64,000 bases of DNA from Patescibacteria group bacterium (GCA_016861085.1 BOKR01000001.1:991298-1055297), one strand, 5' to 3'. Shown: positions 17,189 to 45,009, numbered from the stretch's first letter. The notes: a model not told the origin generated them from the letters alone. Made by a program: numbers and translations.

Positions 17189-17190
17189 TT

Positions 17191-18302: not shown

Positions 18303-18395
18303 CTTTTGGTTTTTGTTCGCGTTGATTCTTTGGCTTTTTTTCTTTACAGTTAATGATAGGACTCTCCTTAAAGTCCTCTTGTTTTATGTGAAAAT

Positions 18396-19925
18396 ATGAA
18401 AAAGCCTGCGATACCAAAGAAATTACTCGATAAACGCATTCCCACATTACTCGGAATTTTTGTGCTTGTCGTCGCTTTGATTGCTGGAACGTTGTTACTA
18501 GGTGAAGGTCCAGGAGTTTTTGCCCCAAGAGCTACCCCAACAACAACTCCAAAAAAAATTAAAGTCACTAATGTCACTGATAACAGCTTTACTATCTCCT
18601 TTTTGACTGATGATCTAACGCCAGGATTTGTGAAATATGGCACTCAACCAGGGGCATTAAGTTCTCAAGCGAGTGACGATAGGGACCAGCTCAGTGGTAC
18701 AGTTTCCGACTACCGCGTACACCATGTGACTGTTCGAGGATTGCAACCAACTACAACCTACTACTATACCTTGGGAACTGGTGCAGGAACCAATTTTGAT
18801 GATAACGGTAATCCATTCATGATAAAAACAACTGCCCGAAGTGGTGCTCCTGCAGCAGCCAAAACTATTTATGGCAGTGTTAGTACCCAAGCTGGGAGTC
18901 CTGCTGACGGGTCTATCGTGTATGTTGCCTTAGCAAATGCCGGCGAGATGTCCTCATTAGTCAAAGCCTCGGGAAGTTGGGCAGTTCCACTTTCTAATGC
19001 TCGTACAAAAGATGGCAGTGGATACGCACAAATTACCGATGCAGACAGCATTATTTTAACAGTGCAAGGACAACTGCCAACCGATGTTATTACACATACC
19101 ACAATGGTTTCAGAAGCTCAGCCAGTCCCAACATTGACCTTTGGCCAAACAGCCCCACCAACCACAGTTCCTACCTCCCCAACTCCAACGCCAACCCCAG
19201 AAACTACGCCAGAACCAACTGTTGAGCCTACCTCTGAACCATCTACCCCAAGTGCTTCAATTGGTGATGAATTTGCAAGTACACCACTCTCAACCGAAAG
19301 TGCTGTAACAACCCAAGCCAGTGAAAGCGCTACAGCCATTACTGTAGTTGACCTTGAAAAAACTGAACCACAACAAGTAACAACAACTCAACCAGTTATT
19401 GTAGGAAAAGCAGCTCCAAATGTTACCGTTACTCTTGAAGTTCATTCAGACGGAAACATTCAGGAATTCGTTACCGCAGATGCAAATGGGAACTTTACAC
19501 TTGATATTGCTGCCCTCTCTAAAACTTTAGAACCTGGCCCACATACTGCAACCTATTCATATACTGATCCAACAACAGGGGAAGTAGTAACCAAAACAGT
19601 TGACTTCGTTGTAGCTGCACCTCAGCAGTTGGCACAAGCACAACCATTTGGCTCAGGCAATCCGTTCCCGCCACCAACTGCGACACCTACCCCAACTCCT
19701 GCAACCCAATCTGCCGTGGCTACACAGTCAGCAACCGCTACACAGTCAGCACAGGCTACAGAGAGCGGTAGAACAACAATGCCAGCTACAGACAGTGGTG
19801 TGCCTGTTTCAGGCTCTGTAGGAACCACACTTGCTTTAGTTTTTGGGGGCCTTTTCTTCATCATTTCCGGTTTGTGGAGTTTCTGGATTTCGCATCAGCT
19901 TGGAAAAAATGAGGTGGAGTTTTAA
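18396..19925 (+). CDS. Cell-surface protein with fibronectin-III-like (purple-acid-phosphatase-N-like) domain, PT-rich linkers and a C-terminal hydrophobic anchor
   Basis: N-terminal TM/signal segment. VTNVTDNSFTISFLTD…YYYTLG is FN3-like. TPTPTPE and ATQSA repeats. C-terminal …TTLALVFGGLFFIISGLWSFW hydrophobic segment. Confidence 0.55.
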   Translation: MKKPAIPKKLLDKRIPTLLGIFVLVVALIAGTLLLGEGPGVFAPRATPTTTPKKIKVTNVTDNSFTISFLTDDLTPGFVKYGTQPGALSSQASDDRDQLSGTVSDYRVHHVTVRGLQPTTTYYYTLGTGAGTNFDDNGNPFMIKTTARSGAPAAAKTIYGSVSTQAGSPADGSIVYVALANAGEMSSLVKASGSWAVPLSNARTKDGSGYAQITDADSIILTVQGQLPTDVITHTTMVSEAQPVPTLTFGQTAPPTTVPTSPTPTPTPETTPEPTVEPTSEPSTPSASIGDEFASTPLSTESAVTTQASESATAITVVDLEKTEPQQVTTTQPVIVGKAAPNVTVTLEVHSDGNIQEFVTADANGNFTLDIAALSKTLEPGPHTATYSYTDPTTGEVVTKTVDFVVAAPQQLAQAQPFGSGNPFPPPTATPTPTPATQSAVATQSATATQSAQATESGRTTMPATDSGVPVSGSVGTTLALVFGGLFFIISGLWSFWISHQLGKNEVEF

Positions 19926-19981: not shown

Positions 19982-20899
19982 ATGAAAGTATTAGTGACTG
20001 GCGGATGTGGCTTTATTGGTTCACATGTTGTCGATGCATATGTAGATGCTGGTTACGAAGTAATGGTAGCAGATAAAAAAAAGGTGCATACATTTCCGTA
20101 TAAAAATGTTGGGGCTACTTATTTTCAAATTGATCTAACAGATTCAAAAAAAGTTTCTGAACTAATTAATGAGATTGAACCTGATGTTATAAATCATCAT
20201 GCTGCCAATATTTCATTATCCAAATCGATAGAAAAACCGCTATACGATGCAAAAAATAATACAACTGCCATAATCAATTTGCTCGAATCTGCAAGAAAAT
20301 TTGGAGTTCAAAAATTTATCTTTGCATCCTCAGCTGGCGCCTTGTACTCAAAAGACTCCAAACTTCCCTTCACCGAAAAAACACCAACAAATCCCATTTC
20401 ACCGTATGGTGTCTCAAAGTTAGCAAGCGAACACTATATCAAGGTCTACGCAAGTTTATATGGACTTAAATATGTGATTTTGAGGTATTCCAATGTCTAT
20501 GGACCAAGGCAAAACAGTAAATTGAAACCTGTTGTATCAGTCTTTATTGAAAGCCTGATACAAGACAAACAGCCAACTATACACAATAAGGGGGATCAAA
20601 CTAGAGACTTTTTGTATGTTGAGGATATAAAAAGCGCAAACGTTCTTGCACTTAACTATAATGAAAATGAATGTTTTAATATAGCCTCAGAAACTGAAAA
20701 CAGCATTTGGGAAACATACAAAATAATCGAGAGAATACTCAAGAAAAACCTTGAACCAAAGTTCAGGGAAAAAATGGTTAAAGAGCAACACAGAAGTTAC
20801 ATTTCCAATAAAAAAGCAAAGAAAAAATTAGGTTGGAAACCAAGGCATACTTTGAGAAATGGACTGATCAAAACAATAGAATGGTATGAAAAAAATTAA
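19982..20899 (+). CDS. NAD-dependent epimerase/dehydratase (extended SDR; UDP-sugar 4-epimerase-like)
   Basis: MKVLVTGGCGFIGSH Rossmann motif and a YxxxK catalytic pair. Confidence 0.8.
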   Translation: MKVLVTGGCGFIGSHVVDAYVDAGYEVMVADKKKVHTFPYKNVGATYFQIDLTDSKKVSELINEIEPDVINHHAANISLSKSIEKPLYDAKNNTTAIINLLESARKFGVQKFIFASSAGALYSKDSKLPFTEKTPTNPISPYGVSKLASEHYIKVYASLYGLKYVILRYSNVYGPRQNSKLKPVVSVFIESLIQDKQPTIHNKGDQTRDFLYVEDIKSANVLALNYNENECFNIASETENSIWETYKIIERILKKNLEPKFREKMVKEQHRSYISNKKAKKKLGWKPRHTLRNGLIKTIEWYEKN

Positions 20900-22220
20900 T
20901 AGTGTTTCCTACATTTTCCCCGTTCATAACGAATCTGAATTTCTAGAAAAACAAATAGATGCTTTTTTAGAGCAAATAAAAAAATACCGATTACCAATCA
21001 CTGATATTATTCTAGTAGAAAATGGAAGTTCAGACGATTCTTGGCAAATCTGTAAAAAATTAGCGAAGAAAAATAAAAAAATAATTGCCAAGAGAATCTG
21101 TGTTGGATCTTATGGTCTGGCTGTTAAGCATGGTCTTTTGTGTTCTCAATCAGATACCCTCGTCTTATTAAATGTCGATTTTTTCGACGTTAAGTTTATT
21201 CACAAAGCGCTTTTCTTACCCGAACCATACGAAGTCGTCAACGGCTCGAAACTTCATCCGGAAAGTAACGATACTAGAGTTATCTTAGATAAACTCAGAA
21301 CAAAATCTTTCAATTTTTTTCTCAATCATTTTTTTAAATATTCCGGAACTGATACACACGGAATAAAAGTATTCAAGAATACAAAAAAGTTACAGCAAGC
21401 AATTAATGCTACAGTAACGAAACATGAACTATTTGATACTGAACTGCTGTACCGTATGATGGGTTCTGTTACTGAATTACCTGTTACGATTCATGAGCTC
21501 AGACCAACTCGATACTCCAGCATTAAAAGGGCTAAAAGAACTTTGATCGATGTGGTCAGACTACTTTCCTATCTTCTCTTCTCAAAAAAAACTATACCTA
21601 AAAACTTGTTAAGAGTTGCTGATGATTATGGCCTCAATCCTGTTATTAGTCGAGCAATTGTTGACCTCTACGAAAGTAAGCAAATTGATGTTATTTCTGT
21701 TCTGCCTAATATGGTTACGGAAAGTGAACTTCTTACGTTAAAAAAAAGGGTAAAAAATAGTCGAATAGCTGTTCATCTTAATTTGGTTAGAGGGAAACCA
21801 GTTACAAATCCTAATCAAATCAGCTCACTGGTTACAAAAAAACGAGAGTTTTATTCACTCCCTAAATTTCTGTTGAGGTTAATTCTTAGAAAAATTAACC
21901 TCTCTGAAGTAAAAACTGAGTTGCAAAACCAAATTGAATCTCTTAACAAAGTTGGTATACGTCCGAATTACATTAATTCAGAGCAACACACACATGTACT
22001 TGCTCCAATTTATAACATCGTTGCCAAACTAGCAAAGAAAAACAAAATTAGATATATTCGTAACACATGTGATATAACAAATTACCTGTCATGGAGGATT
22101 CATAAACGCATCATATTCATGATGATTACTTTTATACTCGAGCTACTATACTCAAGTGTTGTGTCAAAAAATCGAGTAGTAAAAGAAATAATCTGTCACC
22201 CAGGATCAAACTATGACTGA
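20886..22220 (+). CDS. Fusion: GT2 glycosyltransferase + YdjC/ChbG/HpnK-like carbohydrate deacetylase domain
   Basis: N-terminus is GT-A (…IFPVHNESEFL…ILVENGSSDDS…). C-terminus …RVADDYGLNPVISRAIVDL…ISVLPNM…IAVHLNLVRGKPV… matches the YdjC-family pattern. Confidence 0.6.
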   Translation: MKKINSVSYIFPVHNESEFLEKQIDAFLEQIKKYRLPITDIILVENGSSDDSWQICKKLAKKNKKIIAKRICVGSYGLAVKHGLLCSQSDTLVLLNVDFFDVKFIHKALFLPEPYEVVNGSKLHPESNDTRVILDKLRTKSFNFFLNHFFKYSGTDTHGIKVFKNTKKLQQAINATVTKHELFDTELLYRMMGSVTELPVTIHELRPTRYSSIKRAKRTLIDVVRLLSYLLFSKKTIPKNLLRVADDYGLNPVISRAIVDLYESKQIDVISVLPNMVTESELLTLKKRVKNSRIAVHLNLVRGKPVTNPNQISSLVTKKREFYSLPKFLLRLILRKINLSEVKTELQNQIESLNKVGIRPNYINSEQHTHVLAPIYNIVAKLAKKNKIRYIRNTCDITNYLSWRIHKRIIFMMITFILELLYSSVVSKNRVVKEIICHPGSNYD

Positions 22221-22830
22221 TATAACAATACACAGATATTACCATTCAAGAAGTAAACGAATACTGGACTTTTTTCTTGCTCTTAGCTTACTTACACTAC
22301 TCTCACCACTCATTGTCTGCCTTTGTTGTAGTACAGGAATAGTTGGTGGAAAGCCAGTTGTCTACAAACAAATGAGACTTGGTAAAAACAAAAAGCCATT
22401 TATTTTATATAAAATTAGAACTATGAAAAAAGGAGCATCAGTATTGCAACAAAAACTCAAAGACCTAAATGAGGCTCCCTATCCTATGTTCAAAATAGCA
22501 AATGATCCTAGATTTACGAGAATAGGTAAGTACCTTTCTCGCTTGGGCTTAGATGAAATACCTCAAATAATCAATATCATTAAAGGAGAAATGAGTTTTA
22601 TTGGACCTCGTCCTCTTCCTATTTACGAAGCTAGTCAGCTTGATGATACCTGGGACTTTAGGTACAAAGTAAAACCAGGAATCCTTTCAACATGGGCACT
22701 TTCTCCTAAAAGGCATGATTCACTTGCTGAGTGGAAAAAACTTGAGATAAGTGGACTGCAATGTGCATCGATTGCAAATGACATACGACTGATCATTAGA
22801 TCAGTTAAAACAGTAATCTTTAGACATTAA
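22213..22830 (+). CDS. Polyprenyl-phosphate sugar phosphotransferase (bacterial sugar transferase, WbaP/CpsE/PglC-like initiating enzyme)
   Basis: 205 aa. One N-terminal TM helix plus the conserved KxRTM…PRxTxxGxxLRxxxLDELPQ…GxMSxIGPRP signature. Confidence 0.85.
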   Translation: MTDITIHRYYHSRSKRILDFFLALSLLTLLSPLIVCLCCSTGIVGGKPVVYKQMRLGKNKKPFILYKIRTMKKGASVLQQKLKDLNEAPYPMFKIANDPRFTRIGKYLSRLGLDEIPQIINIIKGEMSFIGPRPLPIYEASQLDDTWDFRYKVKPGILSTWALSPKRHDSLAEWKKLEISGLQCASIANDIRLIIRSVKTVIFRH

Positions 22831-25085
22831 CGAGGTACTCTTCCATCGTATAAGTATTCCTGAATTACTTTTGCTTTTTCTTTTTCACCTCTGGAGAATA
22901 AAGTATTCATTAATTTATACTGATATTCCTTTTCAATTAAGTTTGGTTCATCGACAGATTGTATATACTTGTTCCAAAAATCATACCACCACAATATGTA
23001 CGGCTGACCCTCTTCTTGAGTTGAACGTTTCATATGAGTATATATCTCACTCGAAATAATAAACCACAAATCATTTTCTGATATAAAAGTCAGATATACT
23101 TTTAAGTCCTGCATCTCAACAAATAAAATGTCTTTAATAACTCTTTTTTCAAACCACTGAATAAATGTCTCGTAATTTTTTCCAAAAGATGTTTTATCTG
23201 CCTCACTAAGCTTTAGTAAAATCCCCACATCTTTTATCGTTATAGATTCTTGATTAATAAAATATGGTTCTGATAAATGGAAAGTCCATTTCTCCACCTG
23301 AAGCACCTCGTTGTAATACTTTCCTGCAGTCTGAGGGTCACCAATATTCAAATGGTAATTTGCCGACTGATTCAGATAACTTGCAACGTTTTCTTTTACC
23401 TCATAACGAAAAACATATCCTTTACTCTGAGCTTCGTTAATTAATCTCAACCCATTGATTGCTGTTATTCCTAACTCCTCGAACATCTGTTCTGATTCAA
23501 GTAACTTCATGTAATCAGTGTTAATAGTTGTCCAAGGAGAAATGGAAACTAACTTTTGATATAGAGCTATTTTTTTTCTTTGATCGTTAATTTTTTCCAA
23601 AAACAAAAAAAGAATGTCTGGGTCATTTTTGTGTATCTCCATCATTTTGCTAATATTCGTCTCGTTTAGGCTGTTATCATTTATAATCTCTTTTGCTTGA
23701 TAGCGAGAATATGGGAAAAACCCAACCAATAAATTTGCCTGGCTATCTGCTAAAAGGGCTTTTGACAAAATAAGAACCATACCTAGGGTCACAATCATCA
23801 ACGCAGTAATTGCCCAAAACAAAGTTATTAATTTGACAAGCCTTATGTTTTTTGATTCTGAACTTTGTAAAAAACCAGCAGCAAATAAAAGTGATAACTG
23901 AAAAATAAAAAAAGTATTCCAATCAAAATCTAAGAGTGAGTTTGCAAAAATCAGGATGAAACCTATGGCTAGATAGTATTCTATGCTTCTAGTTCGGTTT
24001 GATATCACTGTTGTCACTGCACGAAGAAAGATGGAAACTAATAAAATCAGAACTACAGTTCCGGCTACAATACCTGATTCAGAAAAAGTTTGAAGGAAAA
24101 AATTGTGTGCATAAATAGAGCCATGCTGCCCTATTTGACTATATTTTTTTGTTATCAAAGAAAAAGTTCCTGGCCCATATCCAAATAGTGGATAATCAAA
24201 AAAAGAATAAACCGCCTGTTTAAAGTACTCTGGTCTGATCTCTTTCACAACTGGTTTACATAGCTGCTGTTTGAATTCAACTGTTTTACAATTATCTGAA
24301 CTGAAAGAAACAAAAAACAAACCAGGAATGACTATCAAAAATAGTGATAAAAGAAATAACTTCAAACCCTTATTTTCAACAAAATTCTTACTCAACAAAA
24401 AAGGAAGACTTAAGAAAGACAATATGATAGCGAGTCTACCAAAAGTAAACAAGAGCAAAGTATAAAATAACATGACCAAAAAAAACTTAAACCTAAATAG
24501 CTCTGAGTATCTTGAATAGTTAAACCACCACACGATTGGTAAAACCAGTAGTAAGATCGCTGCAAAATGGCTATGTCCATATGAAAGCGTTAGAAGGTTT
24601 AATGTTGGTAAAAAAGCAGAGAGCGATGGAAACACAAACAAAAGAATGAAAAAGAAACTAAGCACAAACAAAATCAGCAAAACTGCCAGAAAAATATGTT
24701 CTTTCTCAATCTTTCTGGAGTGAAACGCGCTATAAAAAAAACTAAACACTAAAAATGATGCTATATAAAGTGTAACGTTCTCTAATGAAAGAGAAAAACT
24801 ATGTGAAAAAAATAAGGATATTACTACCAATGGTATCGATAAGAAGAAAAAAAATGATAGTTTTTCATCAAGAATGATCTTCAACTTTAAAAGAAAAAAA
24901 CTAATCAAAAGAAACAGTATGTATGCCGAAACAACAATTAACTCGTAGCTCGTAGCAAATGAAAAAACTAGCAGTATCTGAAAAATGGAGAAAAATAGTA
25001 AAAAAATACTCCATCTCAATGATAGAATCATATCTGTAATGGTAGCATAAAAACCATTCTTGGATTTAGATGAAAAATATAGCAA
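22827..25085 (-). CDS. Polytopic membrane protein, O-antigen ligase/polymerase (Wzy/WaaL)-like, with C-terminal soluble TPR-like domain
   Basis: 752 aa. About 12 predicted TM helices over ~430 aa, then a ~300 aa helical soluble domain. Confidence 0.5.
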   Translation of the reverse strand: MLYFSSKSKNGFYATITDMILSLRWSIFLLFFSIFQILLVFSFATSYELIVVSAYILFLLISFFLLKLKIILDEKLSFFFFLSIPLVVISLFFSHSFSLSLENVTLYIASFLVFSFFYSAFHSRKIEKEHIFLAVLLILFVLSFFFILLFVFPSLSAFLPTLNLLTLSYGHSHFAAILLLVLPIVWWFNYSRYSELFRFKFFLVMLFYTLLLFTFGRLAIILSFLSLPFLLSKNFVENKGLKLFLLSLFLIVIPGLFFVSFSSDNCKTVEFKQQLCKPVVKEIRPEYFKQAVYSFFDYPLFGYGPGTFSLITKKYSQIGQHGSIYAHNFFLQTFSESGIVAGTVVLILLVSIFLRAVTTVISNRTRSIEYYLAIGFILIFANSLLDFDWNTFFIFQLSLLFAAGFLQSSESKNIRLVKLITLFWAITALMIVTLGMVLILSKALLADSQANLLVGFFPYSRYQAKEIINDNSLNETNISKMMEIHKNDPDILFLFLEKINDQRKKIALYQKLVSISPWTTINTDYMKLLESEQMFEELGITAINGLRLINEAQSKGYVFRYEVKENVASYLNQSANYHLNIGDPQTAGKYYNEVLQVEKWTFHLSEPYFINQESITIKDVGILLKLSEADKTSFGKNYETFIQWFEKRVIKDILFVEMQDLKVYLTFISENDLWFIISSEIYTHMKRSTQEEGQPYILWWYDFWNKYIQSVDEPNLIEKEYQYKLMNTLFSRGEKEKAKVIQEYLYDGRVPR

Positions 25086-26083
25086 TCATACATGACAGTT
25101 ACCTTCACGTAGGTGGTGCAGAAAAAGTACTGAAATATTTTGTTTCGGCATATCCAAAAGCTGATATATATATTCCACTTTTGAAAAAAAAATATTCTGG
25201 AGAAACAAAAACAACGGGTAGAATCTATACTTCCATTTTGAGCGAGCTGCCATTTGTAGAAAAATATGCGAGTATATTAAAACCACTTGTTTTACTCTAC
25301 TGGGAAACCCTTAACTTGAAGAAATATGATTTAATCATTTCTTCCTCACATTCCTTTTCATCAAAATCAGTCAATAAATCAAAACATGCAAAACATGTTT
25401 CATACATACATACACCTCCAAAATATTTATATAGTGAACTTAATGAGATGAATTGGATAAAAAAGTTGCCTTTCAGTGTGTTATTTTGGCCACTCTTCTT
25501 TTTATTAAGAAAATATGATTATTACTCCGCCCAAAAACCAGATTTGCTAATAGCTAACTCTAAAAACGTACAAAGTAGAATAAAAAAATATTATAACCGC
25601 AATAGCATTGTTATCTACCCTCCCCATACCGTAGCTCCCGTCGACTTTAAAAAGCGAAAAGGAAAATACTATCTCTTCTTTTCTAGATTAGAAAAACAAA
25701 AGGGAGCTGAGTTAGTAATTAGAACTTGTTCGCAATATAAACTGCCGCTTGTTGTTATCGGAACTGGAAGTCAGGAAAAATATCTAAAAAAAATAGCTAG
25801 CAAAAATATCGAATTTACGGGATTCATAACTGAGGAAGAAAAGGTACTTATCTTTGCTGAAGCAAAAGCATTGTTATATGCCGCAATTGATGAAGACTAT
25901 GGTTTAGTTATTCCAGAAGTTCTCTCCTACGGAATTCCCGTTATCGCATATGATTCCGGCTCAATAAGAGAAATTCAATCAAAACAAACGAGTAAAAATG
26001 AGATATTATTGTTTTCAGAGTATAACTGTTCCTCATTAGTCCATGCAATTCACGAGCATAAAAAAATATATAAAGATATTTAG
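25070..26083 (+). CDS. GT4 family glycosyltransferase
   Basis: GT-B fold with the C-terminal E…G(L/I)V..E(A/V)…G.PVI motif region. Confidence 0.7.
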   Translation: MKNIAIIHDSYLHVGGAEKVLKYFVSAYPKADIYIPLLKKKYSGETKTTGRIYTSILSELPFVEKYASILKPLVLLYWETLNLKKYDLIISSSHSFSSKSVNKSKHAKHVSYIHTPPKYLYSELNEMNWIKKLPFSVLFWPLFFLLRKYDYYSAQKPDLLIANSKNVQSRIKKYYNRNSIVIYPPHTVAPVDFKKRKGKYYLFFSRLEKQKGAELVIRTCSQYKLPLVVIGTGSQEKYLKKIASKNIEFTGFITEEEKVLIFAEAKALLYAAIDEDYGLVIPEVLSYGIPVIAYDSGSIREIQSKQTSKNEILLFSEYNCSSLVHAIHEHKKIYKDI

Positions 26084-27488
26084 AAATAGAAACAAATTCC
26101 TTTATTTTGAGTTGTCGTTTCTTATTGCTGTTTTTTTTCTAGCATTTTTTCTCAGATCAAAAAATACTTTGGATTCTCCGATATGGTTTGACGAAGCAAT
26201 CTCGGTCATACTCCCAAAAACACTAACCTACAAAGAACTTTTTCTTATGCAACATTGGGATAAGGCACATCCACCACTATTTTATATTTTCTCTAAGTTT
26301 TTTCTCTCTTTCATTGGGTCTATAGAAATAAACATTCTTAGAATTCCCAGCATTTTTTTTAGCTCACTTGCAGTTATACCTCTCTATTACATTAGCAAAA
26401 TCATTGTTAAAACCAAATTAAGTTTGTTTGTGCCGATCTGGTATTCAATGCATCCAACAGTTATTTTATACGGATATTCATTTAGAGGTTATGGTTTTTT
26501 GCAATTTGCATACCCTCTTGTCGTTCTACTCTATATTAAAGACAGAAAAAAATATACAAAAACAATATTAAAGTTCATTGCTTTTTTACTTCTCTGGAAC
26601 TATGCAACCATATGGCTGATAACTGGCCTCACTTTGCATCAACTTGTTTTAAAGAGAGGTAGAATATTTATGGAATTACCTGTATTCATTAGAAAAAACT
26701 ATCTTATTCTAGTCGTAATACTATTAGAACTATTGTTCTATTTCATACCTAGTATCCGTTCTGGATTTAACCTCAATAGGCATCTGTCTGAGAATATTTA
26801 CCCTTTCATTTATTCACTCTTGGGTTTAGAAGGAGAACTGCACTCGTTAACCTATCATATGGGTAAAACTAGATTTGATGCAGTGTTGCTAGTACCTAGT
26901 TTCATCGTACTCTGTGCAAACTTATCATACTCATTAGCAACAAAGATGAAAAAGTATCTGATAATTTTGTTCCTAGTTATCTCATCCATATTGATCGCCT
27001 ATGTTACTTCGATCACATATCAACCTATACTATCGCTAACCAACCAAACTTTATCCCTGATATTATTTCCTCTCTTGTTCACTCCAATTTTGAACTCAAA
27101 AATCTTAGGGCCTATATATGCAGTCATCATAACAGTTGTTATGTACCTCGGATACATGAACATCTATTCATTCACCTTTGACCCATTGGTCTTTATCGAT
27201 CAACAAGCGAAAAATGAATTGAGTAAATCAAGAGGTGAAATTTATTTTATTTCTGATGCGAATGAAAGCACTTCTGGAACAGCATTTAAATATATTTGTC
27301 TTAAAACTTTTGACCAAATTAAGCCCTTTAGATTGTCACATATTGATACCATTTCACCTCTAACTGATAGGTTTATATATTCTGAAAATCTGGACCAAAA
27401 ATATGAAGATTACATCAAAAAGTATTGTTTTGTTGATCGTTTTGAAACTATCAAAAAACAGACAATATACTTTTGTCCAGGGAAATAA
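26043..27488 (+). CDS. GT-C membrane glycosyltransferase, PMT_2/ArnT (GT39/GT83)-like, paralog 1
   Basis: 481 aa, ~11 TM helices. N-terminal loop motif WFDEA…HWDKAHPPLFY is typical of PMT_2. Confidence 0.65.
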   Translation: MQFTSIKKYIKIFRNRNKFLYFELSFLIAVFFLAFFLRSKNTLDSPIWFDEAISVILPKTLTYKELFLMQHWDKAHPPLFYIFSKFFLSFIGSIEINILRIPSIFFSSLAVIPLYYISKIIVKTKLSLFVPIWYSMHPTVILYGYSFRGYGFLQFAYPLVVLLYIKDRKKYTKTILKFIAFLLLWNYATIWLITGLTLHQLVLKRGRIFMELPVFIRKNYLILVVILLELLFYFIPSIRSGFNLNRHLSENIYPFIYSLLGLEGELHSLTYHMGKTRFDAVLLVPSFIVLCANLSYSLATKMKKYLIILFLVISSILIAYVTSITYQPILSLTNQTLSLILFPLLFTPILNSKILGPIYAVIITVVMYLGYMNIYSFTFDPLVFIDQQAKNELSKSRGEIYFISDANESTSGTAFKYICLKTFDQIKPFRLSHIDTISPLTDRFIYSENLDQKYEDYIKKYCFVDRFETIKKQTIYFCPGK

Positions 27489-27498
27489 TTTGTACAGT

Positions 27499-28971
27499 AT
27501 GTATATAAAAACTCTAAATGCGCTCACAAAATCAGAATGGCTAATTCTTTTTTTCACTTTCTTTTTTGCACTTTTACTAAGGATCAAATACTCAACAATC
27601 ACCGACGTTTGGCTTGATGAAACAACCGTATATACTCTCGCTGCAACATATTCTTACAGAAACCTGTTTTTTATAAATCATTGGGATGCTGCACACCCCC
27701 CATTGTTATATCTGTTTGTTAAGCTCCTGATTGATATTTTTGGTATACAACAAGCATCTATTCATAGCATTAGAATCTTACAAATATTTTTTAGTTCACT
27801 TGCTGTGTTTCCAATATATGTTATTGCGAAAAAACTAATTAAAAATGCGACAGCGTTTTTTGTACCTGTTTTTTACTCAGTAAATATTTTCCAAATATAC
27901 TGGGGTGCTACCATGAGACCGTACGGTGTATTGCAGTTCTTCCTACCAGTGGCACTGGTGACATTTTTCAAAAATAGTTGGAACACTAAACGGAAAATAA
28001 TACTTTGCAATATACTCTTTATTTTTTTGTTCTTTTGGGACTACTCGACTATATGGTTTTTCGTTACCTTCTACCTCTATCACTTACTAGCTTTCGGTAT
28101 AAGAGCGTTATTTAAAAAAATATATGATACTAAGATTTTCTTACTGTCTGTACTGTTATGGTTTCCAGTTTTTGTGAAAGGTTTTTCTCAAGCTATTAAC
28201 CTAGAGGCCTATCTCAATGTCAGTCTTCTAACTCTTAAATTCGCTATAGCTGAGTTTTACGGAGTCCAAACAATCTTTAATGCGAACGATTTTTTCTACG
28301 GTATTGTCATCGTTTTAATCGTTTCTGCAATTGCCTTTATCGTCAAAAAAAAGAAAACAATGTATTTTATTTTGATAGGTATCATTGTTCCAATAGTTAC
28401 TTCGTTTTTATACTCCATTTACTTAAATCCGATCTTTGTACCACCAAACCTTATTTTTTCTGCAATTCTTTTCCTCTACTTCCCGTTACTTTTTACACCA
28501 AAAAAACTGATAGTTGCAGTAGTGTGCGTGTATCTACTTTTTGTTATGCTTTCTAATACAAATGCTCTGTTTACCACTTCAAAATTCCAATCAAGAAAGA
28601 TAATTTCACATTTTGACATTTCAAAGGAGATGAATACTGAACAAAACAAAATAGCTTTCATTTCTAGAGAATCAGAAAGTGAGTTGGGTGCCCCTATTGA
28701 ATACTTTTTGTTACAAAATGGCTTTATACCAGCACAGGACAAGAACCATCATTTTTCACTGAAAAATAAGTCTTATATAGTAAGCGTAAAAAAATTTTGG
28801 GAAATCACTGATAGTAATACAGAAAACCTCTTTTTTGTAACCGATAGAGTTGAAAAACCGTATTCACAAGAAGATCTTAAAAAGATAATAACTGTTTGCC
28901 CGCTAATGGAGTTCGTGCCGGTGTTTGAGATTAATCAGCAAACGAATCCACACTTATATAAATGTATGTAA
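27499..28971 (+). CDS. GT-C membrane glycosyltransferase, PMT_2/ArnT-like, paralog 2
   Basis: Carries the same WLDETT…HWDAAHPPLLY motif. The internal ATG (MYIKTLNAL…) abuts the upstream stop; the track start at 27403 would overlap the previous gene by 86 nt. Confidence 0.65.
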   Translation: MYIKTLNALTKSEWLILFFTFFFALLLRIKYSTITDVWLDETTVYTLAATYSYRNLFFINHWDAAHPPLLYLFVKLLIDIFGIQQASIHSIRILQIFFSSLAVFPIYVIAKKLIKNATAFFVPVFYSVNIFQIYWGATMRPYGVLQFFLPVALVTFFKNSWNTKRKIILCNILFIFLFFWDYSTIWFFVTFYLYHLLAFGIRALFKKIYDTKIFLLSVLLWFPVFVKGFSQAINLEAYLNVSLLTLKFAIAEFYGVQTIFNANDFFYGIVIVLIVSAIAFIVKKKKTMYFILIGIIVPIVTSFLYSIYLNPIFVPPNLIFSAILFLYFPLLFTPKKLIVAVVCVYLLFVMLSNTNALFTTSKFQSRKIISHFDISKEMNTEQNKIAFISRESESELGAPIEYFLLQNGFIPAQDKNHHFSLKNKSYIVSVKKFWEITDSNTENLFFVTDRVEKPYSQEDLKKIITVCPLMEFVPVFEINQQTNPHLYKCM

Positions 28972-28996
28972 AAACATATAATTAACTGAAGTACAT

Positions 28997-30475
28997 ATGC
29001 AAACCAAAGTAGCTGTTTTAGTTTTGTTGTTTGTTGTTTCTATTAGCCTTTTTTTTAGAACCTACAATGTTGAGAATACTACGAGAGTATTCAGCGATTC
29101 TGGCAGGGATTTTCTTGTTGCTAAAAAAATAGCCGAAGGATCTGCCCCATATAATCCATATTTAGCTTCATCATCTGGTTTTGAAAGCACTCCTATCTAT
29201 TATTGGGTTATTGCTTTTTTTTGGTCGATTGGAAGATCAATCGAAAACACTATAACTATTTATTCCGTGACTTTAGCTATAGCTACACCACTTATATTTT
29301 ATTTAATTGGAAAGGAAATTCATTCAAAAGAGCTCGGATTGTTCCTTGCTTTTTATTCCTCAATTCAACCATATTTTGTTGGTTTATCTAGGTGGATCTG
29401 GCAACCAAATGTGTTGATATTACTAATTCCAACGTTGTATTTATTTTTTTTATACAACAAAAAAGTTTTACTAAGAAAGAACCAACACAAGGAAAAATTT
29501 ATTCATATTTTTTTACTATTTCTCATACTAAATTTGAATATTCATATTCACTTCTCTTCGATAGTCTGCGTTTCTTTTCTGATCTCAATATTGATATATG
29601 AATTGCTAAAAAATAAGAAAATACTACTCGCTATCTCAGTAGGTTTAGGTTTTATTTCTTCGGTGTTAATTAGAGCGATAGTTGTCAATATTGCAACCCC
29701 AACAATCTTTGGTGTTGGCCTAAGTTTAAATCAAATGCTCATAAACTATAAACAAATTATTGGATCTTATGACAAAACTATTTTCTTAAATGAATGGTCA
29801 GAAAAACCTTCATTTTTCCCAAACATGATTCTTTTATTAGTTTTTCTTTCTATTTATTCATTTAAGAAACATAAAAAGTTGCCAAACCAGCTTATTACCT
29901 TACTAATAGGGTCACTACTCTCATTCATAACAGTAGTTTACCCAAAAACCGTGTATACCTACTTCTACATACCCCAGCTAGTACTTTTTCATATTCTTTT
30001 TGGAAGCATTCTGTACTTTTTTATGAAAATTAAGATTCAAATTTGTAGCAAGTTTTGTTTTGCACTAATCACAATAATTATATGTGGTTACTATATTGCT
30101 CACACCTATCAAATAATACACACAACCAACGAAATCAAAATCTCACAAATACTTTCGTTGGAGATTTACAAAGATTATAATACCAACCATCTCAGTATAT
30201 TTAGCATTGATTTTGTACCAAACAATTATGGACAAACAGACCATCAAAGTACATTTGACGCTATTTTGTGGCTACAAATGGAGTCCTTAATGAAAACTCA
30301 ACTCGTAAAAATTGGCACAACGTCACCTACAATAATCGAACCAAACAACCCCAAAATCACGTATTATGTTTTAGGCAACTCAGACCTAGTAGTACCACAA
30401 AAAAATACTGTGAAGATATTCGAACGAAAAATAGAGGGCGATACTTACTCAATTTATAAAGAATTAGCACTGTAA
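28997..30475 (+). CDS. GT-C-like polytopic membrane protein, third tandem paralog (divergent)
   Basis: 492 aa with multiple TM helices. N-terminal loop FSDSGRDFLVA…, in the same position as the DE/HPPL loop of the two upstream paralogs. Confidence 0.45.
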   Translation: MQTKVAVLVLLFVVSISLFFRTYNVENTTRVFSDSGRDFLVAKKIAEGSAPYNPYLASSSGFESTPIYYWVIAFFWSIGRSIENTITIYSVTLAIATPLIFYLIGKEIHSKELGLFLAFYSSIQPYFVGLSRWIWQPNVLILLIPTLYLFFLYNKKVLLRKNQHKEKFIHIFLLFLILNLNIHIHFSSIVCVSFLISILIYELLKNKKILLAISVGLGFISSVLIRAIVVNIATPTIFGVGLSLNQMLINYKQIIGSYDKTIFLNEWSEKPSFFPNMILLLVFLSIYSFKKHKKLPNQLITLLIGSLLSFITVVYPKTVYTYFYIPQLVLFHILFGSILYFFMKIKIQICSKFCFALITIIICGYYIAHTYQIIHTTNEIKISQILSLEIYKDYNTNHLSIFSIDFVPNNYGQTDHQSTFDAILWLQMESLMKTQLVKIGTTSPTIIEPNNPKITYYVLGNSDLVVPQKNTVKIFERKIEGDTYSIYKELAL

Positions 30476-30509: not shown

Positions 30510-31529
30510 ATGAACTTGTTAATCACTGGCTCACTTGGTCTAGTCGGTTCGACTGCAACCGAATATTTCCTAAATAAAAATCATTCTATAACTGGTATTG
30601 ATAATGACATGAGGGCAGTCTTTTTCGGAAACGATGGTAGCACAACAACGCAGTTGAAACGATTCCTAAAAAATAGTAACTATACGCATACAGATCTAGA
30701 CATTCGCGATTATAAAAACCTAGAGAATATTTTCAAAGGCAACTCATTTGATGCCATTATTCACACGGCTGCACAGCCAAGCCATGACAAAGCCAGGGAA
30801 ATTCCACTCTTAGACTTCGAAGTTAATGCGTTAGGCACCCTCAACCTTTTGGAACTGACAAAACAATACGCTCAAAAAGCTGTCTTCATTTTCACAAGTA
30901 CTAATAAAGTTTACGGAGACAACCCCAACAAAATTGGCTTAAGAGAAAATAAAAAAAGATATGTATTTAAAGATAAATTGTTTGTTGGATTCAATGAATT
31001 GACCCCAGTCGATCACACTACACATTCACTGTTTGGAGCGAGTAAACTTAGTGCAGATATATGCGTCCAAGAATATGGCAAATACTTTGGACTCAAAACA
31101 ACTTGCTTACGGCTCGGTTGTATTACAGGGCAAGCACACTCTGGAGTAAAACTGCATGGGTTTCTCTCCTATTTAATTAAGTCCTTAAAAGAAAAAAAAT
31201 CATACGAAATTATTGGCTATAATGGTAAGCAAGTTCGCGACCAGATCCATGCATATGATCTCGCTGCCGCGTTTGAACAAATAATAAAAAAACCTGGTGT
31301 AGGGGAAGTCTTTAATCTTGGAGGTGGGTCTCAAAATACGATTTCCGTGTTAGAAGCTATTGAATTAGTCTCAAAAAAAATTAATATCGAGCCAAAACTC
31401 AAGTATACAAAAGCAAATCGAATTGGTGATCATATCTGTTACATTTCAGATATTAGAAAATTTCAAAAAAGATATCCCAAATGGAAACTAACGCAGAGCA
31501 TTGAGGATATTGTAAACGAACAACTATGA
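30510..31529 (+). CDS. NAD-dependent epimerase/dehydratase (CDP-paratose-2-epimerase-like SDR)
   Basis: MNLLITGSLGLVGS…GIDNDMR…, then a YxxxK catalytic pair. Confidence 0.75.
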   Translation: MNLLITGSLGLVGSTATEYFLNKNHSITGIDNDMRAVFFGNDGSTTTQLKRFLKNSNYTHTDLDIRDYKNLENIFKGNSFDAIIHTAAQPSHDKAREIPLLDFEVNALGTLNLLELTKQYAQKAVFIFTSTNKVYGDNPNKIGLRENKKRYVFKDKLFVGFNELTPVDHTTHSLFGASKLSADICVQEYGKYFGLKTTCLRLGCITGQAHSGVKLHGFLSYLIKSLKEKKSYEIIGYNGKQVRDQIHAYDLAAAFEQIIKKPGVGEVFNLGGGSQNTISVLEAIELVSKKINIEPKLKYTKANRIGDHICYISDIRKFQKRYPKWKLTQSIEDIVNEQL

Positions 31530-32284
31530 AACAAGTATCTATTCTCTCTGTTCCTGTGACAGTGACAAATTATCTTGAAACTATTACTTTTGTTAAGCGA
31601 ACTATTTCTCAAAGAAAAAAAATATATATTTATGTAGCCGCAGTTCATTTAATAATGGAATGTCAAAAAAACCCAAAGTTGCTGAAAAGTTTAAAAGGAG
31701 CAGCTATTGTTACTCCTGACGGAATGCCACTTGTATGGATTTCAAAACTATTGGGAAATAAACTTGCGGGTCGAGTATACGGACCAAATTTGACCATAAT
31801 GCTCTGTAGATTGGCTGAACTGTCTGGTTTTACAATTTTTTTGTTAGGAGGCTCTACTGGACAGTCTAAGAATTTAGTGAGTACCTTGCAATCAAAATTT
31901 AAAAAAATAAATATCGTTGGGAATATTGATACACCAATCAGGCCTATCCCAAAAAAAGAGAATCAAATAATAGTTGATGCTATAAATAAAAGTAAGCCAG
32001 ACATTGTTTTCGTTGGACTTGGCTGCCCTAACCAGGAATTGTGGATCATGGAGAATAGAAGTAAAGTCTCAGCACCCGTTTTAATCGGAGTTGGGGCGGC
32101 ATTTGACTTTATTTCTGGGAAAGTTCAACAAGCCCCAGTGTGGATGCAAAATAGTGGTCTTGAATGGCTGTATCGTTTGATTCAAGAACCAAAGCGTTTG
32201 TGGAAACGCTACTTAATACTTAACACGTTATTTATATTTAAAATTATTAAACAAATACTTAAATCTTTTTTTGTAGGACAGTAA
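31526..32284 (+). CDS. GT26 glycosyltransferase (WecB/TagA/CpsF family)
   Basis: …TPDGMPLVW…GRVYGPNL…FLLGG…VGLGCPNQELW… family signature. Confidence 0.8.
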   Translation: MKQVSILSVPVTVTNYLETITFVKRTISQRKKIYIYVAAVHLIMECQKNPKLLKSLKGAAIVTPDGMPLVWISKLLGNKLAGRVYGPNLTIMLCRLAELSGFTIFLLGGSTGQSKNLVSTLQSKFKKINIVGNIDTPIRPIPKKENQIIVDAINKSKPDIVFVGLGCPNQELWIMENRSKVSAPVLIGVGAAFDFISGKVQQAPVWMQNSGLEWLYRLIQEPKRLWKRYLILNTLFIFKIIKQILKSFFVGQ

Positions 32285-32332: not shown

Positions 32333-33556
32333 ATGCGAAAAAAAATTCTCTTTCTAAGTCAAGTATATCCATATCCAGCGGATGGTGGCGGTAAAATTAA
32401 AACATTAAACTCACTAAAAACACTTGCTAAAGATTTTGACGTCTATGCAATCTTTATTTCAGAAAAAAAACCGCTCAAAAAAGATATCGAATATCTTAAA
32501 AAAATTGGAGTAAAAAAAATCAAAGTATTTTACAATCTAAAAATTTTAGCATCTGTTAAAGATGATTATCCTCATCTAATTATGAATTTCCTGAAACTGA
32601 GGCCACACTATGTATTTCAGTATACTTTTGCACCGGCATTTTCATATATAAAAAATGCTGTCAGTAGCTACAAACCAGACATCATACACATCGACCATAT
32701 TAATATTGCTCAATATTTGCCAAAAGAAAAGAATGAAGTCTGGATTCTTGAGCACCACAATCTTGAATTTTATCTTCTATGGACAAGATTTTTATACTCC
32801 TCCAAATGGTCAAGAAAACTGTATCTGCTCATCGAGTCAGTACTAACATATTTATTTGAATCAAAAAAAATAAAACAATTTGATTTTGTTTTTACTATTT
32901 CTCAAGAAGAAGCTGAAAGATCAAAAAGATTTTTTGGGATAAGAAACGTTTCAGCTCAACCTCTTGTGTACCCCACCATTACTATTAAGAAGAAATTGTC
33001 ACTCAATCCTCACCTCCTTTTCATAGGTGGTCTAGGTTGGCCACCTAACGAAGATGCCATAGAGTGGTTTATCAATCAAATGTTTCCAATAATTCTAGAA
33101 AAAATTCCAAACGTTGAGCTTCATGTAGTTGGTAAAGATAACCCCATTCTTACTCATAGGTTACCAAAACACACTAATATCTTTTTACATGGGTATCAAA
33201 AAGATATCACACCTTTTTTGCAAAAAGCAGATATTTTTATCTTGCCCTTCCGCATGGGTGGCGGGGTTAGAATTAAGAGCCTGACTGCTCTTTCTGCGGG
33301 AGTACCAATCGTGTCTACAAAGTTGGGTGTAGAGGGACTAAAAGTCAAAAATAATACACACTATCTAGAAGCAAACACTGAAATAGATTTTGCCAACAGC
33401 GTTATCACACTGCTTAAGTCAAAAAAAATGCAAGATAAAATGTCAAAGAATCAAACCGAATATTTGACTGAAAACCACTCAAAAAAATTGAATAGAAAAT
33501 GGCTGGATGAATATCACTTTTGGTCTACATATCCCCATAAAAAAAACCGTTCATAA
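32333..33556 (+). CDS. GT4 family glycosyltransferase
   Basis: GT-B fold with a C-terminal …FILPFRMGGGVRIKSLTALSAGVPIVST…G.EG motif. Confidence 0.75.
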   Translation: MRKKILFLSQVYPYPADGGGKIKTLNSLKTLAKDFDVYAIFISEKKPLKKDIEYLKKIGVKKIKVFYNLKILASVKDDYPHLIMNFLKLRPHYVFQYTFAPAFSYIKNAVSSYKPDIIHIDHINIAQYLPKEKNEVWILEHHNLEFYLLWTRFLYSSKWSRKLYLLIESVLTYLFESKKIKQFDFVFTISQEEAERSKRFFGIRNVSAQPLVYPTITIKKKLSLNPHLLFIGGLGWPPNEDAIEWFINQMFPIILEKIPNVELHVVGKDNPILTHRLPKHTNIFLHGYQKDITPFLQKADIFILPFRMGGGVRIKSLTALSAGVPIVSTKLGVEGLKVKNNTHYLEANTEIDFANSVITLLKSKKMQDKMSKNQTEYLTENHSKKLNRKWLDEYHFWSTYPHKKNRS

Positions 33557-34419
33557 ATCTTCAAAAAGATAAAAGATAAAATGCTTCTTCTTTTACCAAA
33601 GGAGAAATATTGTCTATATTCCTGCGGCCATCCCTTGAGAGATTTGAAATATGTTTTCCAATTCACATAGGGCAAATATACAAACTCATTAGAAATTTCC
33701 CATTTTTCAGCTAGTAATCTTGCTAATCTACCACGGTAATACCCTTTTTTCAGGAAATAAGTCATACTTGTTGTTTCCTCGTGCCAAATTTGCAACTGCT
33801 TTATAAACAATCCTTTTAAACCCTTAGACTGCATTGCAAATCCCATATCTGTATCTGCGCTATCAAACCAATCAATATGAATTTTTGTATCAAAACTCAA
33901 TCTATTTCTTTTTAGATCTGAAACTTTGAATATAATATTTTTCGTATCTACATTAAAAGGAGTTGTTAATACTCCACCTTGAAGCTTTTGCATAAACCAG
34001 TACTTTTGGTGGACGTATTGAGCTGTGGCAGTTGCACTATAAGAGTTCAGTACTTTTGAATCTCCAATAAAGTACGAATTATTGGGAAAAATCTTTACAA
34101 TCCTTTCTGCAACAGTAATCCAACTCTTATGAAGTACGCAATCATCGTCAACAAAAGCCAAGTATTTTGTTTTTACATTTCTTAGAGCCACATTCCTAGC
34201 AAAAGGGACACCTTGTTTTTTTTCTGATATGTATCGAATCTGTAAAATATTTGAAAAAGAACAAGCAACGCTTTTTGCACTTAAGGCAATATCATTATCA
34301 ACAATTAATATCTCTAAAGGATATGTAGTCTGATCTACTAAAGAACAAAGTAAGCGGTGTAGTTGTTCCGGCCTTTTTTTTGTAACGATTGCTAAAGTAA
34401 CTTGCCTTTTTTCATGCAT
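33514..34419 (-). CDS. GT2 family glycosyltransferase
   Basis: N-terminal …AIVTKKRPEQL…ILIVDND… GT-A signature. Confidence 0.7.
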   Translation of the reverse strand: MHEKRQVTLAIVTKKRPEQLHRLLCSLVDQTTYPLEILIVDNDIALSAKSVACSFSNILQIRYISEKKQGVPFARNVALRNVKTKYLAFVDDDCVLHKSWITVAERIVKIFPNNSYFIGDSKVLNSYSATATAQYVHQKYWFMQKLQGGVLTTPFNVDTKNIIFKVSDLKRNRLSFDTKIHIDWFDSADTDMGFAMQSKGLKGLFIKQLQIWHEETTSMTYFLKKGYYRGRLARLLAEKWEISNEFVYLPYVNWKTYFKSLKGWPQEYRQYFSFGKRRSILSFIFLKIYERFFLWGYVDQK

Positions 34420-35876
34420 AGCAGCGTAAGTACCCCTAAATATAAAAATAATAAATCAAAACTTGGATCTTGATTAAATAGTGTGTGAACTTGCGAATTT
34501 AGGATAAACCCTACAACCCCCAACCATATACCAAAAAACACGTTTTTTTTAACATACTTAAAACTCAATTGTAATATACCAAGTAAAAACAAAATAAAAA
34601 ATACAGTACTAGGAATTCCTAGCTCTGAGAAAAAAAGAAAGAAAGTGTTATGCACGGGAAACATAAAACCTCTTAATTCAGGGGGCAATAAACTTTGTTC
34701 GTTCATCATTCTAGTACTTAAATTCAGTCCAACCCCAAATAAGGGAAATTCCTTTATCATAATTAGTGCCTGTTCAATGAGAGCTATTCTGACAACTCCA
34801 CTTCCATCTGATAAAAATTCCGTAGTGCTTACTATTCTGAGCCAAAATCGTTTACCAAATAGAACTAAAAAACTGCTTATTCCGGCGATAAAAAATAGTA
34901 GATATTTACTGATAAATTCTTTTAAAAAAATTCTTTCATTAAAATACAAGTTGAGGAAAAAAACTATGAAAAAAAGTAAGCTTGAAAACCATCCGCTCCT
35001 AACAAAACTCCCATACAACGCTAGCAGTCCTAGAAGTACACAGATAGATGAAACCACAGTTGTACCTCTCTGTTTTTCTTGCAATGAGAAAATTGAAAAA
35101 ACAATGGCAAATGGTAACAACATGCTAACAAAACTAGCAAAAAAAGTTGGGTGTCCAATTAAGCCAGAAGCTCTGTATAAACTTTCCGAACCGTCTGAAG
35201 TAAGGTATCCCTGTTGTTCATAACCAGCTCCGTCCTCGAGGTACCAACCTATTGGCCCACCATTTTGATGTTGTAAAAAACCAACGTACCCATTTAAAAA
35301 TAGGACCAAAATTATCGATAGGAAAAAATATTTTACAAATGTTCTGTTTTGTAAAATGATAATCGTTATAAAAAATAAAAACACCGCTTGTAAGATTCTT
35401 AAAAATCCAAAAAAGCTTAAAAAGTAGTCACTGGAAAACACTGTGCTTACAAAAGCTAGTACAATAAAGCCTAGTAATGCAAAAAGTACTAGCATAATAT
35501 TCTGATTAAATGATTTTCTAAAGTAGAAAAATAATTCTGGAGATGAAATTAAAAAAAGTAGCAAAATTATAATTGATCTCAGACTTACACCGTAATACAA
35601 GCTAAAACCGTGCATCCAAAATTCCCTTCCCTGAGCCACAGCAACCAAATCCCATCCACGAATGCCTTTGTCAAATGAAAAAACAAATAGCAACGCAACA
35701 AATAAGACTTCCTTTATTGAAAAATCAAAAAGTAGAAAATTAAATGTTACAAATGAAGACACGATAAAAAGCAAGGTCTTTATATCGTGAACAAATTGAA
35801 GAGCAACAATATGTACTAAAAAAACAAAAATAAAAAATAGTGAATTACCTAGTAACTGTTTCAACTTCAGCAACAT
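34392..35876 (-). CDS. Polytopic membrane protein, O-antigen ligase/polymerase-like
   Basis: 494 aa with ~12 TM helices and a large extracytoplasmic loop (…LEDGAGYEQQGYLTSDGSESLYRASGLIGHPTFFASF…), typical of the Wzy_C/O-antigen-ligase family. Confidence 0.5.
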   Translation of the reverse strand: MLLKLKQLLGNSLFFIFVFLVHIVALQFVHDIKTLLFIVSSFVTFNFLLFDFSIKEVLFVALLFVFSFDKGIRGWDLVAVAQGREFWMHGFSLYYGVSLRSIIILLLFLISSPELFFYFRKSFNQNIMLVLFALLGFIVLAFVSTVFSSDYFLSFFGFLRILQAVFLFFITIIILQNRTFVKYFFLSIILVLFLNGYVGFLQHQNGGPIGWYLEDGAGYEQQGYLTSDGSESLYRASGLIGHPTFFASFVSMLLPFAIVFSIFSLQEKQRGTTVVSSICVLLGLLALYGSFVRSGWFSSLLFFIVFFLNLYFNERIFLKEFISKYLLFFIAGISSFLVLFGKRFWLRIVSTTEFLSDGSGVVRIALIEQALIMIKEFPLFGVGLNLSTRMMNEQSLLPPELRGFMFPVHNTFFLFFSELGIPSTVFFILFLLGILQLSFKYVKKNVFFGIWLGVVGFILNSQVHTLFNQDPSFDLLFLYLGVLTLLCMKKGKLL

Positions 35877-39844: not shown

Positions 39845-39924
39845 GTGACTAACTATATCAAACCTATTATAAGCAAATATTTTTAGTTCTGGAAATGCAA
39901 AACAAAATACTGTATACAAACCTT

Positions 39925-44863: not shown

Positions 44864-44884
44864 CCACAAAAAAAGCGCTTAATT

Positions 44885-45009
44885 CTGGCCTCGACCTATC
44901 TTCTCACTAGGGTTGCCCCTGCAATATTGTCAGCGCTGAGGCGTTTCAAGACTCTGTTCGGGAAGGGAAGAGTTGGGTCCACCTCGCTCCAGAGACCAGA
45001 ATTAAACGC
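44885..45009 (-). rRNA. rrf: 5S ribosomal RNA
   Basis: Minus-strand transcript GCGUUUAAUUCUGG…CCCGAACAGAGUCUUGAAACGCCUCAGCGCUGACAAUAUUGCAGGGGCAACC…CCAGAAUUAAGCGC. Helix I terminal pairing and loop-C/helix-IV consensus are present. Ends are approximate. Confidence 0.75.

Follow-up and report, generated by a model that had tools for sequence, protein, structure and literature searches.

The closest described counterparts of the genes considered here are the multi-component transmembrane glycosylation systems (GacI/J/K/L, CsbB/GtcA/YfhO, and the lactococcal WpsA/B/G/H/J and Csd), in which a polytopic GT-C glycosyltransferase is encoded in or near a wall-polysaccharide or teichoic-acid locus (PMC8035078, PMC10821137, PMC9574508). 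GT-C enzymes that decorate or ligate wall polysaccharides have precedents (PMC8035078, PMC10821137). In the ArnC/ArnD/ArnT and FlmF2/NaxD/FlmK systems, a GT2 enzyme, a deacetylase (of the YdjC family in NaxD) and a PMT_2/ArnT-like GT-C enzyme are brought together (PMC11279074), and the GT39 protein O-mannosyltransferases (Pmts; yeast Pmt1/2/4 and actinobacterial Pmt) are GT-C-fold enzymes whose first luminal or outer loop bears an Asp-Glu motif. Here we describe a 64-kb stretch of DNA (hereafter the window, meaning the whole stretch) from a tiny, uncultivated Patescibacteria group bacterium, in which three open reading frames (ORFs) at 26043-30475 on the + strand, named A, B and C, encode divergent members of this known GT-C enzyme class. 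What is new is the strain-variable cassette slot in which they lie and the recurrent partnership of one of their subfamilies with a GT2+YdjC module. The explanation that we favour, with moderate confidence, is that A, B and C act outside the membrane on the glycopolymer of this locus, using lipid-phosphate-linked donors, with the content of the cassette setting the glycan structure.

The locus resembles the multi-component systems in the position of its polytopic GT-C genes within a polysaccharide locus, in having a cytoplasmic GT2 enzyme at hand (here the candidate charger of polyprenyl phosphate), in the ABC-2 export predicted for the backbone, and in that the GT-C portion is the strain-variable one. 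Unlike in those systems, A, B and C match neither YfhO nor any other named family, PMT_2 alone being matched, and weakly; three GT-C genes stand in a row and no GtrA/Wzx flippase was found in the window; the partner GT2 forms one protein with a YdjC deacetylase; and the host is a bacterium of the candidate phyla radiation (CPR), not a Firmicute. As in ArnC/ArnD/ArnT and FlmF2/NaxD/FlmK, a predicted GT2, a YdjC-family deacetylase and a PMT_2/ArnT-like GT-C are genomically associated, whereas no ArnT or ArnC equivalog was matched at cut-off and GT2 and YdjC form a single protein in this locus. The GT39 Pmts differ from A-C in length (about 520-750 against about 490 amino acids, aa), in carrying a loop-inserted MIR domain where the soluble domain of A-C is C-terminal, and in operon context, which here is polysaccharide assembly. 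Within PMT_2, the Pfam catch-all for bacterial and archaeal ArnT/PMT-like enzymes, the A/B family is set apart by a characteristic W-x-D-E...H-W-D-x-A-H-P-P-L loop.

Three intact GT-C genes in tandem

An earlier reading of the window, made from its sequence only (the sequence-only reading), had placed three co-directional ORFs at 26043-30475, and all three were found there in intact form:

26043-27488, + strand: GT-C paralog A, 481 aa, A/B subfamily; matches the A/B-family hidden Markov model (HMM) at E 2.5e-87, no Pfam match
27403/27499-28971, + strand: GT-C paralog B, 490 aa from the likely start at 27499, A/B subfamily
28997-30475, + strand: GT-C paralog C, 492 aa, subfamily apart from A/B; PMT_2 match

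The start of A overlaps the stop of the preceding GT4 gene by 41 nucleotides (nt). Three start codons are candidates for B (ATG 27403, TTG 27430 and ATG 27499), of which TTG 27430 was chosen by an independent gene call; the likely start, judged by sequence features, is ATG 27499, situated 10 nt past the stop of A and in best agreement with the family alignment. Independent assemblies from three samples, Logan DRR258782 among them, also contain all three ORFs intact. The deposited metagenome-assembled genome record (Patescibacteria BroJett025) contains only C-terminal fragments of A, B and C, of 115, 265 and 61 aa (GIK84388.1, BroJett025_10110 and GIK84390.1), each labelled 'hypothetical protein'. 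Because the full ORFs are intact in the window and in the Logan assemblies, these short public calls are probably a gene-calling artefact. Phase-variable homopolymer tracts were considered as a cause of the truncated calls and rejected, the longest runs in A-C being of 8 nt, like in the rest of the window, and pseudogene status was ruled out by the intact ORFs in several assemblies together with the conserved motifs.

In each of the three proteins, residues 10 to 370 or so form a hydrophobic core, which is followed by a hydrophilic soluble tail of 109-131 residues, and the basic N-terminus and net acidic first loop are consistent with an N-in topology. The first outer loop reads WFDEA...HWDKAHPPL in A and WLDET...HWDAAHPPL in B, while the equivalent loop of C, FSDSGRDFLVAKK, retains the Asp and has Ser in place of the Glu.

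Family assignment and relationship of A, B and C

Pfam matches were listed at E <= 0.1, and the gathering cut-off of PMT_2 (PF13231) is 26.1 bits. C scored above this cut-off (27.2 bits) and B below it (21.7-21.9 bits), and A had no Pfam match at E <= 0.1. PMT_2 was matched by 32 of 53 close and intermediate relatives (best E 2.7e-19), and the matched region in B and in most relatives extends from the second transmembrane helix onward, beginning at HPPL. None of the PF02366 (PMT), PMT_4TMC, MIR or YfhO (PF09586) domains was found by Pfam in A, B or C, and PF02366 was matched by only 2 of the 53 relatives. No NCBIfam family, ArnT equivalogs included, matched any of the three, nor do they carry Arabinose_trans/Emb-type domains with a large C-terminal carbohydrate-binding domain. 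Searches of the PDB sequences, among them Pmt1, Pmt2 and Pmt4, with profiles of 5 and of 53 sequences returned no glycosyltransferase, hence no solved Pmt, ArnT or Emb chain; at E <= 10 they retrieved a single sequence, that of an unrelated coiled-coil protein (E 0.77). By every feature tested, A, B and C appear to lie outside GT39, ArnT, YfhO and Emb, and only C formally enters PMT_2.

An AlphaFold model of B, built from the 53-sequence alignment (an earlier 5-sequence run, with pLDDT 52, was not used), reached a pLDDT of 88.5 and a pTM of 0.89, and its structural matches were GT-C enzymes only, with protein-, lipid- and glycan-directed enzymes nearly tied. The PMT_2 matches, the exclusively GT-C structural matches and the acidic motif of the first loop bear out the earlier proposal of PMT/ArnT-like GT-C proteins: the identity of A, B and C as polytopic, GT-C-fold, PMT_2/ArnT-like glycosyltransferases is solid, while their acceptor and sugar are unproven.

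A and B share 30% identity over 398 aa (BLASTP E 2e-39), A and C show a marginal match (E 0.005 over 61 aa), and BLASTP detected no significant similarity between B and C. When the A/B-family profile (53 sequences) was aligned with the C-family profile, hhalign gave a probability of 96.4% (E 1.2e-9) over about 185 N-terminal columns, with B D40-E41 placed on C D34-S35 and the W-L-D-E of B over the F-S-D-S of C, so that the loop motifs and their equivalence are as the sequence-only reading had them. The A/B-family HMM also matched C, at E 1.3e-7. Among the 53 A/B-family sequences E41 never varies and D40 hardly does; in the C family, which includes P0004 (39%) and P0005 (Curtissbacteria, motif GDEGRD), the motif Asp is invariant and the next residue is S, T or E. 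Both A and B have closer relatives in another genome (A and A', 38%; B and B', 96%), and this, with their 30% identity, rules out a recent tandem duplication. Of the earlier description as tandem paralogs, then, the paralogy is clear for A and B and holds at profile level for the divergent C.

Word-index searches of 5.8 billion proteins yielded just 3 and 2 relatives. A HMMER search of 1.84 billion representatives yielded 3049 at E <= 0.001, with 15 clusters at E <= 1e-30; the source names of distant relatives are 'glycosyltransferase family 39 protein', 'mannosyltransferase' and 'Ara4N transferase-like'. In the A/B family, mean pairwise identity is 37-38% in the first loop and the following helices, 21% in the C-terminal membrane module and 16% in the soluble tail; in GT-C enzymes, such a split between conserved and variable parts usually corresponds to a donor-binding or catalytic part and an acceptor-specific part. 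From these comparisons, A, B and C would form a small and very divergent branch of the PMT_2 superfamily with two subfamilies (A/B and C), both of which were missed by public annotation.

A variable slot between the GT4 and epimerase genes

A, B and C fill an interval whose two borders are conserved in related loci:

25070-26083, + strand: GT4 glycosyltransferase, conserved left border of the slot
30510-31529, + strand: NAD-dependent sugar epimerase/dehydratase, conserved right border of the slot

The slot holds A, B and C in the window and in locus L134. In L001 and L002, with flanks 97.3-98.7% identical to the window at the nucleotide level, it holds B' and then A', and no C; B' is 96% identical to B but differs at its N-terminus, and A' is 38% identical to A. 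Homology between the window and L001 stops about 100 nt before the GT4 stop, returns at 27588-28976 (B) and is lost again until 30462. In the more distant L003 (flanks 45-73% identical in aa), the slot contains one C-type gene (C') and a second C-type gene follows the epimerase; these genes, at 4325-5803 and 6852-8183, lie on either side of the epimerase, and no A/B-type gene is present. In L005, L058 and L059 (flanks 38-87% in aa) it contains two other GT-C genes, which BLASTP did not match to A, B or C; one of them matches the A/B HMM at E 1.5e-8, and the other weakly matches PMT_2 and carries a GDEG motif. As judged from these alignments, the slot is a cassette site: GT-C genes occupy it in every case, though the set differs, and it provides a defined hot spot for GT-C gene exchange between otherwise 97-99% identical strains. 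Serotype-determining regions of lactococcal and streptococcal wall-polysaccharide loci act alike (PMC9574508, PMC10821137). By the same logic, differing cassette sets would give rise to differing, serotype-like, surface glycan structures.

We know of almost no experimental work on the cell surface of Patescibacteria/CPR. Since CPR bacteria are attached to host cells and exposed to phages, surface glycans likely decide partner and phage specificity in them.

Two observations concern L005 itself. An extra gene of 445 aa with a true PMT (PF02366) match is found at 17066-18403 on its - strand, between homologues of the GT4 gene at 32333 and the GT2 gene at 33514 of the window, and its position marks a second site of GT-C variation in loci of this type. 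The contig (CAZZDG010000009.1) is titled 'uncultured Pseudomonadales bacterium'; despite this title it is syntenic with the Patescibacteria locus, with 50-87% protein identity over 15 matching flanking genes, and is therefore likely mislabelled or mis-binned.

A GT2-YdjC fusion as candidate donor module

A few kilobases before A, the window encodes a two-domain protein that is kept in syntenic loci:

20886-22220, + strand: GT2-YdjC fusion, 444 aa, with Pfam GT2 and YdjC domains

Its YdjC domain matches the structures 2i5i and 8jqe. In L136/L137 (fusion at L136 227-1573), the stop of the fusion gene overlaps the start of a close A/B-family GT-C gene, and the pair is flanked by ABC transporter genes and adjoins a TagF-like glycerophosphotransferase. 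In L138/L139 (L138 2302-3693), GT2 (228 aa) and YdjC (233 aa) are split into adjacent genes beside an A/B-type GT-C, while a C-type GT-C lies between GT4 and WecG. L003, in which only C-type genes occur, has no GT2-YdjC at the syntenic position upstream of Bac_transf. As summarised in PMC11279074, citing Llewellyn et al. 2012, the YdjC-family enzyme NaxD deacetylates undecaprenyl-phosphate-GalNAc before a GT-C enzyme adds galactosamine to lipid A. By analogy with this and with ArnC/ArnD/ArnT, the co-occurrence of A/B-type genes with GT2+YdjC suggests a lipid-linked amino-sugar donor. We propose that the fusion makes lipid-linked N-acetylhexosamine and its de-N-acetylated form, and, less certainly, that the A/B subfamily would use the resulting polyprenyl-phosphate-hexosamine as ArnT and FlmK use the products of ArnC/ArnD and FlmF2/NaxD. 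C may use another donor or form another linkage, its relatives having retained a GT4/WecG neighbourhood, and this too is less certain.

The logic of GT2, deacetylase and GT-C is shared with lipid A modification systems (PMC11279074), and would also suit an ArnT-like reaction in which a lipid anchor or a glycolipid, and no polymer or protein, receives a (cationic) sugar. We regard such a lipid target as very improbable: no NCBIfam ArnT model was matched, the abundance of polymer-assembly genes in the locus is a poor fit to a lipid acceptor, and this member of the Patescibacteria encodes a sortase-type LPQTG surface protein. The phylum is moreover, to our knowledge, monoderm and devoid of lipid A, which counts against this target and means that, in contrast to the Arn and Flm systems, lipid A cannot be the acceptor in a CPR cell.

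A more far-reaching reading can be put forward only tentatively, and we deem it unlikely as a whole: A/B and GT2-YdjC would be an undescribed hexosamine transfer system of monoderm CPR bacteria, and cassettes in the GT4-epimerase slot would recombine fast, giving near-identical strains different types of surface glycan. If true, an ArnC/ArnD/ArnT- or NaxD-like pathway that elsewhere serves lipid A would here have been turned to a wall polymer or surface protein, and slot switching could determine how phages or host cells recognise these episymbionts. A literature search of incomplete coverage retrieved no paper on Patescibacteria GT-C enzymes, and no paper that pairs YdjC and GT-C other than in lipid A systems, which is weak evidence of novelty. 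The pairing of one GT-C subfamily with a GT2+YdjC donor module is testable. Glycobiologists at large would expect a known enzyme class to be used in this way, and the advance is incremental unless the amino-sugar pathway is confirmed.

The surrounding surface-glycan locus

A-C sit within a surface-glycopolymer locus of about 25 kb. The + strand block runs in the order GT4, A, B, C, NAD-dependent epimerase, WecG/TagA and GT4, with intergenic gaps of -41 to +48 nt. Besides the genes already listed, the locus encodes:

22213-22830, + strand: polyprenyl-phosphate phosphoglycosyl transferase (Bac_transf), predicted initiator of a lipid-diphosphate-linked glycan
22827-25085, - strand: Wzy_C-domain membrane protein of the O-antigen ligase/polymerase type, 752-aa ORF
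31526-32284, + strand: WecG/TagA/CpsF-family glycosyltransferase (linkage-unit type)
32333-33556, + strand: GT4 glycosyltransferase
33514-34419, - strand: GT2 glycosyltransferase
34392-35876, - strand: second Wzy_C-domain membrane protein, 494 aa
36805-38359, + strand: ABC-2 permease and ATPase (Wzm/Wzt, TagG/TagH-type glycopolymer exporter)

Methyltransferases and further GT2 enzymes are also encoded around the block, and the predicted functions are together those of a pathway for a wall polysaccharide or a polymer of the teichoic-acid type. On the explanation that we favour, A, B and C would transfer sugar from polyprenyl-phosphate-linked donors to the glycopolymer made and exported by these neighbouring genes, following the Gram-positive multi-component transmembrane glycosylation systems of the GacL, WpsH/WpsJ and YfhO type.

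A variant of this glycan explanation is that at least one of A, B and C takes a completed chain or whole oligosaccharide repeats, rather than single sugars, from a polyprenyl-phosphate carrier, and so polymerises a second glycan or attaches it to the exported backbone; such a role has been proposed for lactococcal WpsH/WpsJ. Bac_transf and the GT2 domain of the fusion could each act as an initiator in this locus, and the many cytoplasmic GT4/GT2 enzymes of the locus together with an ABC exporter parallel the dual-chain lactococcal model with its variable GT-C region (PMC10821137, PMC9574508); C-type genes, in addition, retain the GT4/WecG neighbourhood in L003 and L138. On the other hand, the two Wzy_C proteins are already candidates for polymerase and ligase, no Wzx-type flippase for a lipid-linked oligosaccharide was found in the window, and sequence does not tell mono- from oligosaccharide donors; we judge this variant to be quite improbable.

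The start of the first Wzy_C protein is uncertain (752 aa from a TTG against 667 aa in other gene calls), and its C-terminal extension of about 400 aa is without any Pfam match. A 533-aa protein encoded at 38318-39919 on the - strand, also within the glycan locus, gave weak Peptidase_S24-like and NTP_transf_5 (uncharacterised nucleotidyltransferase) matches.

Thr/Pro-rich surface proteins as possible acceptors

The two Thr/Pro-rich proteins that the sequence-only reading had named as plausible substrates, at 18396-19925 and 58494-61313, both exist, and the first of them is encoded beside the glycan genes:

18396-19925, + strand: Thr/Pro-rich membrane-anchored surface protein with an fn3/purple-acid-phosphatase-N domain, possible alternative acceptor

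Were A, B and/or C protein O-glycosyltransferases, they would move a polyprenyl-phosphate-linked sugar onto Ser/Thr residues of the Thr/Pro linkers of one of these proteins (18396-19925 or 58494-61313) and would resemble the actinobacterial PMT or the streptococcal Pgf/PgtC2 GT-C enzymes. The 18396-19925 protein is conserved beside the locus across relatives (76-98% identity), and GT-C enzymes do glycosylate Ser/Thr-rich disordered regions in Gram-positive bacteria, streptococci included (10.1101/2024.05.05.592596; PMC5856776). Several results speak against this assignment: A/B/C have no PF02366, PMT_4TMC or YfhO match and no sequence match to solved Pmt1, Pmt2 or Pmt4, they lie within a polysaccharide operon, between GT4 and epimerase/TagA, and the cassettes swap between 98-99% identical strains, yet the Thr/Pro protein remains 98% identical. 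Genes for bacterial protein O-mannosyltransferases are, moreover, typically solitary, unlike A-C. The O-mannosylation of Thr/Pro linkers put forward earlier thus gained no positive support from domain content, solved structures or operon context, and we consider protein O-glycosylation unlikely.

Decoration of the glycopolymer by A, B and C, the explanation that we favour, has to be set against a number of observations that weigh in the opposite direction. Since protein-, lipid- and glycan-directed enzymes are near-tied among the structural matches, the modelled GT-C fold does not appear to separate these three kinds of acceptor or to disclose which is used. C is devoid of the second acidic residue of the motif, and a Thr/Pro-rich surface protein is encoded within the same conserved locus. 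No GtrA/Wzx-type flippase was found among window ORFs of at least 120 aa, although the genome beyond the window could encode one, and the MurJ-family (MOP) gene at 14830 passes the MurJ equivalog cut-off and so scores as a true MurJ. As for the proposed donor, the GT2 domain of the fusion, classified against PDB and NCBIfam from the single sequence and then from a 5-sequence profile, matched DPMS (E 4e-9), GtrB (1e-6) and ArnC (3e-6), all of which score lower than generic GT2 enzymes. About five independent locus types show GT2+YdjC together with A/B-type genes, several contigs being too short to judge (those of P0010 and P0017 measure 2-3 kb). Finally, YdjC is absent from the neighbourhood of more distant relatives (E 1e-37 to 1e-42), whose contexts are mixed; the contexts of the distant relatives P0165, P0168 and P0169 are mixed too, and no general neighbourhood rule extends across the wider superfamily.

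Other features of the window

The region 16574-19925, whose products are PilN, PilO, a membrane protein of 147 aa and the Thr/Pro-rich protein of fn3 type, directly precedes the glycan locus, as it does in L001 and L005; this conserved gene order suggests that pilus/surface-protein genes are linked with the glycan genes. The ORF at 58494-61313 encodes a 939-aa surface protein with a C-terminal LPQTG and hydrophobic tail (a sortase signal) and no Pfam match; it contains many Cys-rich 'CRL(T/Q)SNPTS..C' repeats, four 'RGGK(I/V)W(Y/H)' units and long (TP)n linkers.

A scan for promoters and terminators was uninformative, promoter-like sites being fewer than in shuffled sequence and terminator-like sites about equal in number. 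The window is poor in G+C, with about 31-35% around A-C. Genes for 23S rRNA, 5S rRNA and tRNA-Ala(UGC) are found at 44883-48661 on the - strand, with no 16S rRNA gene in the 64-kb window; an unrelated ORF (48872-49834) comes after the tRNA-Ala gene, and the rRNA genes of this bacterium appear to be unlinked.

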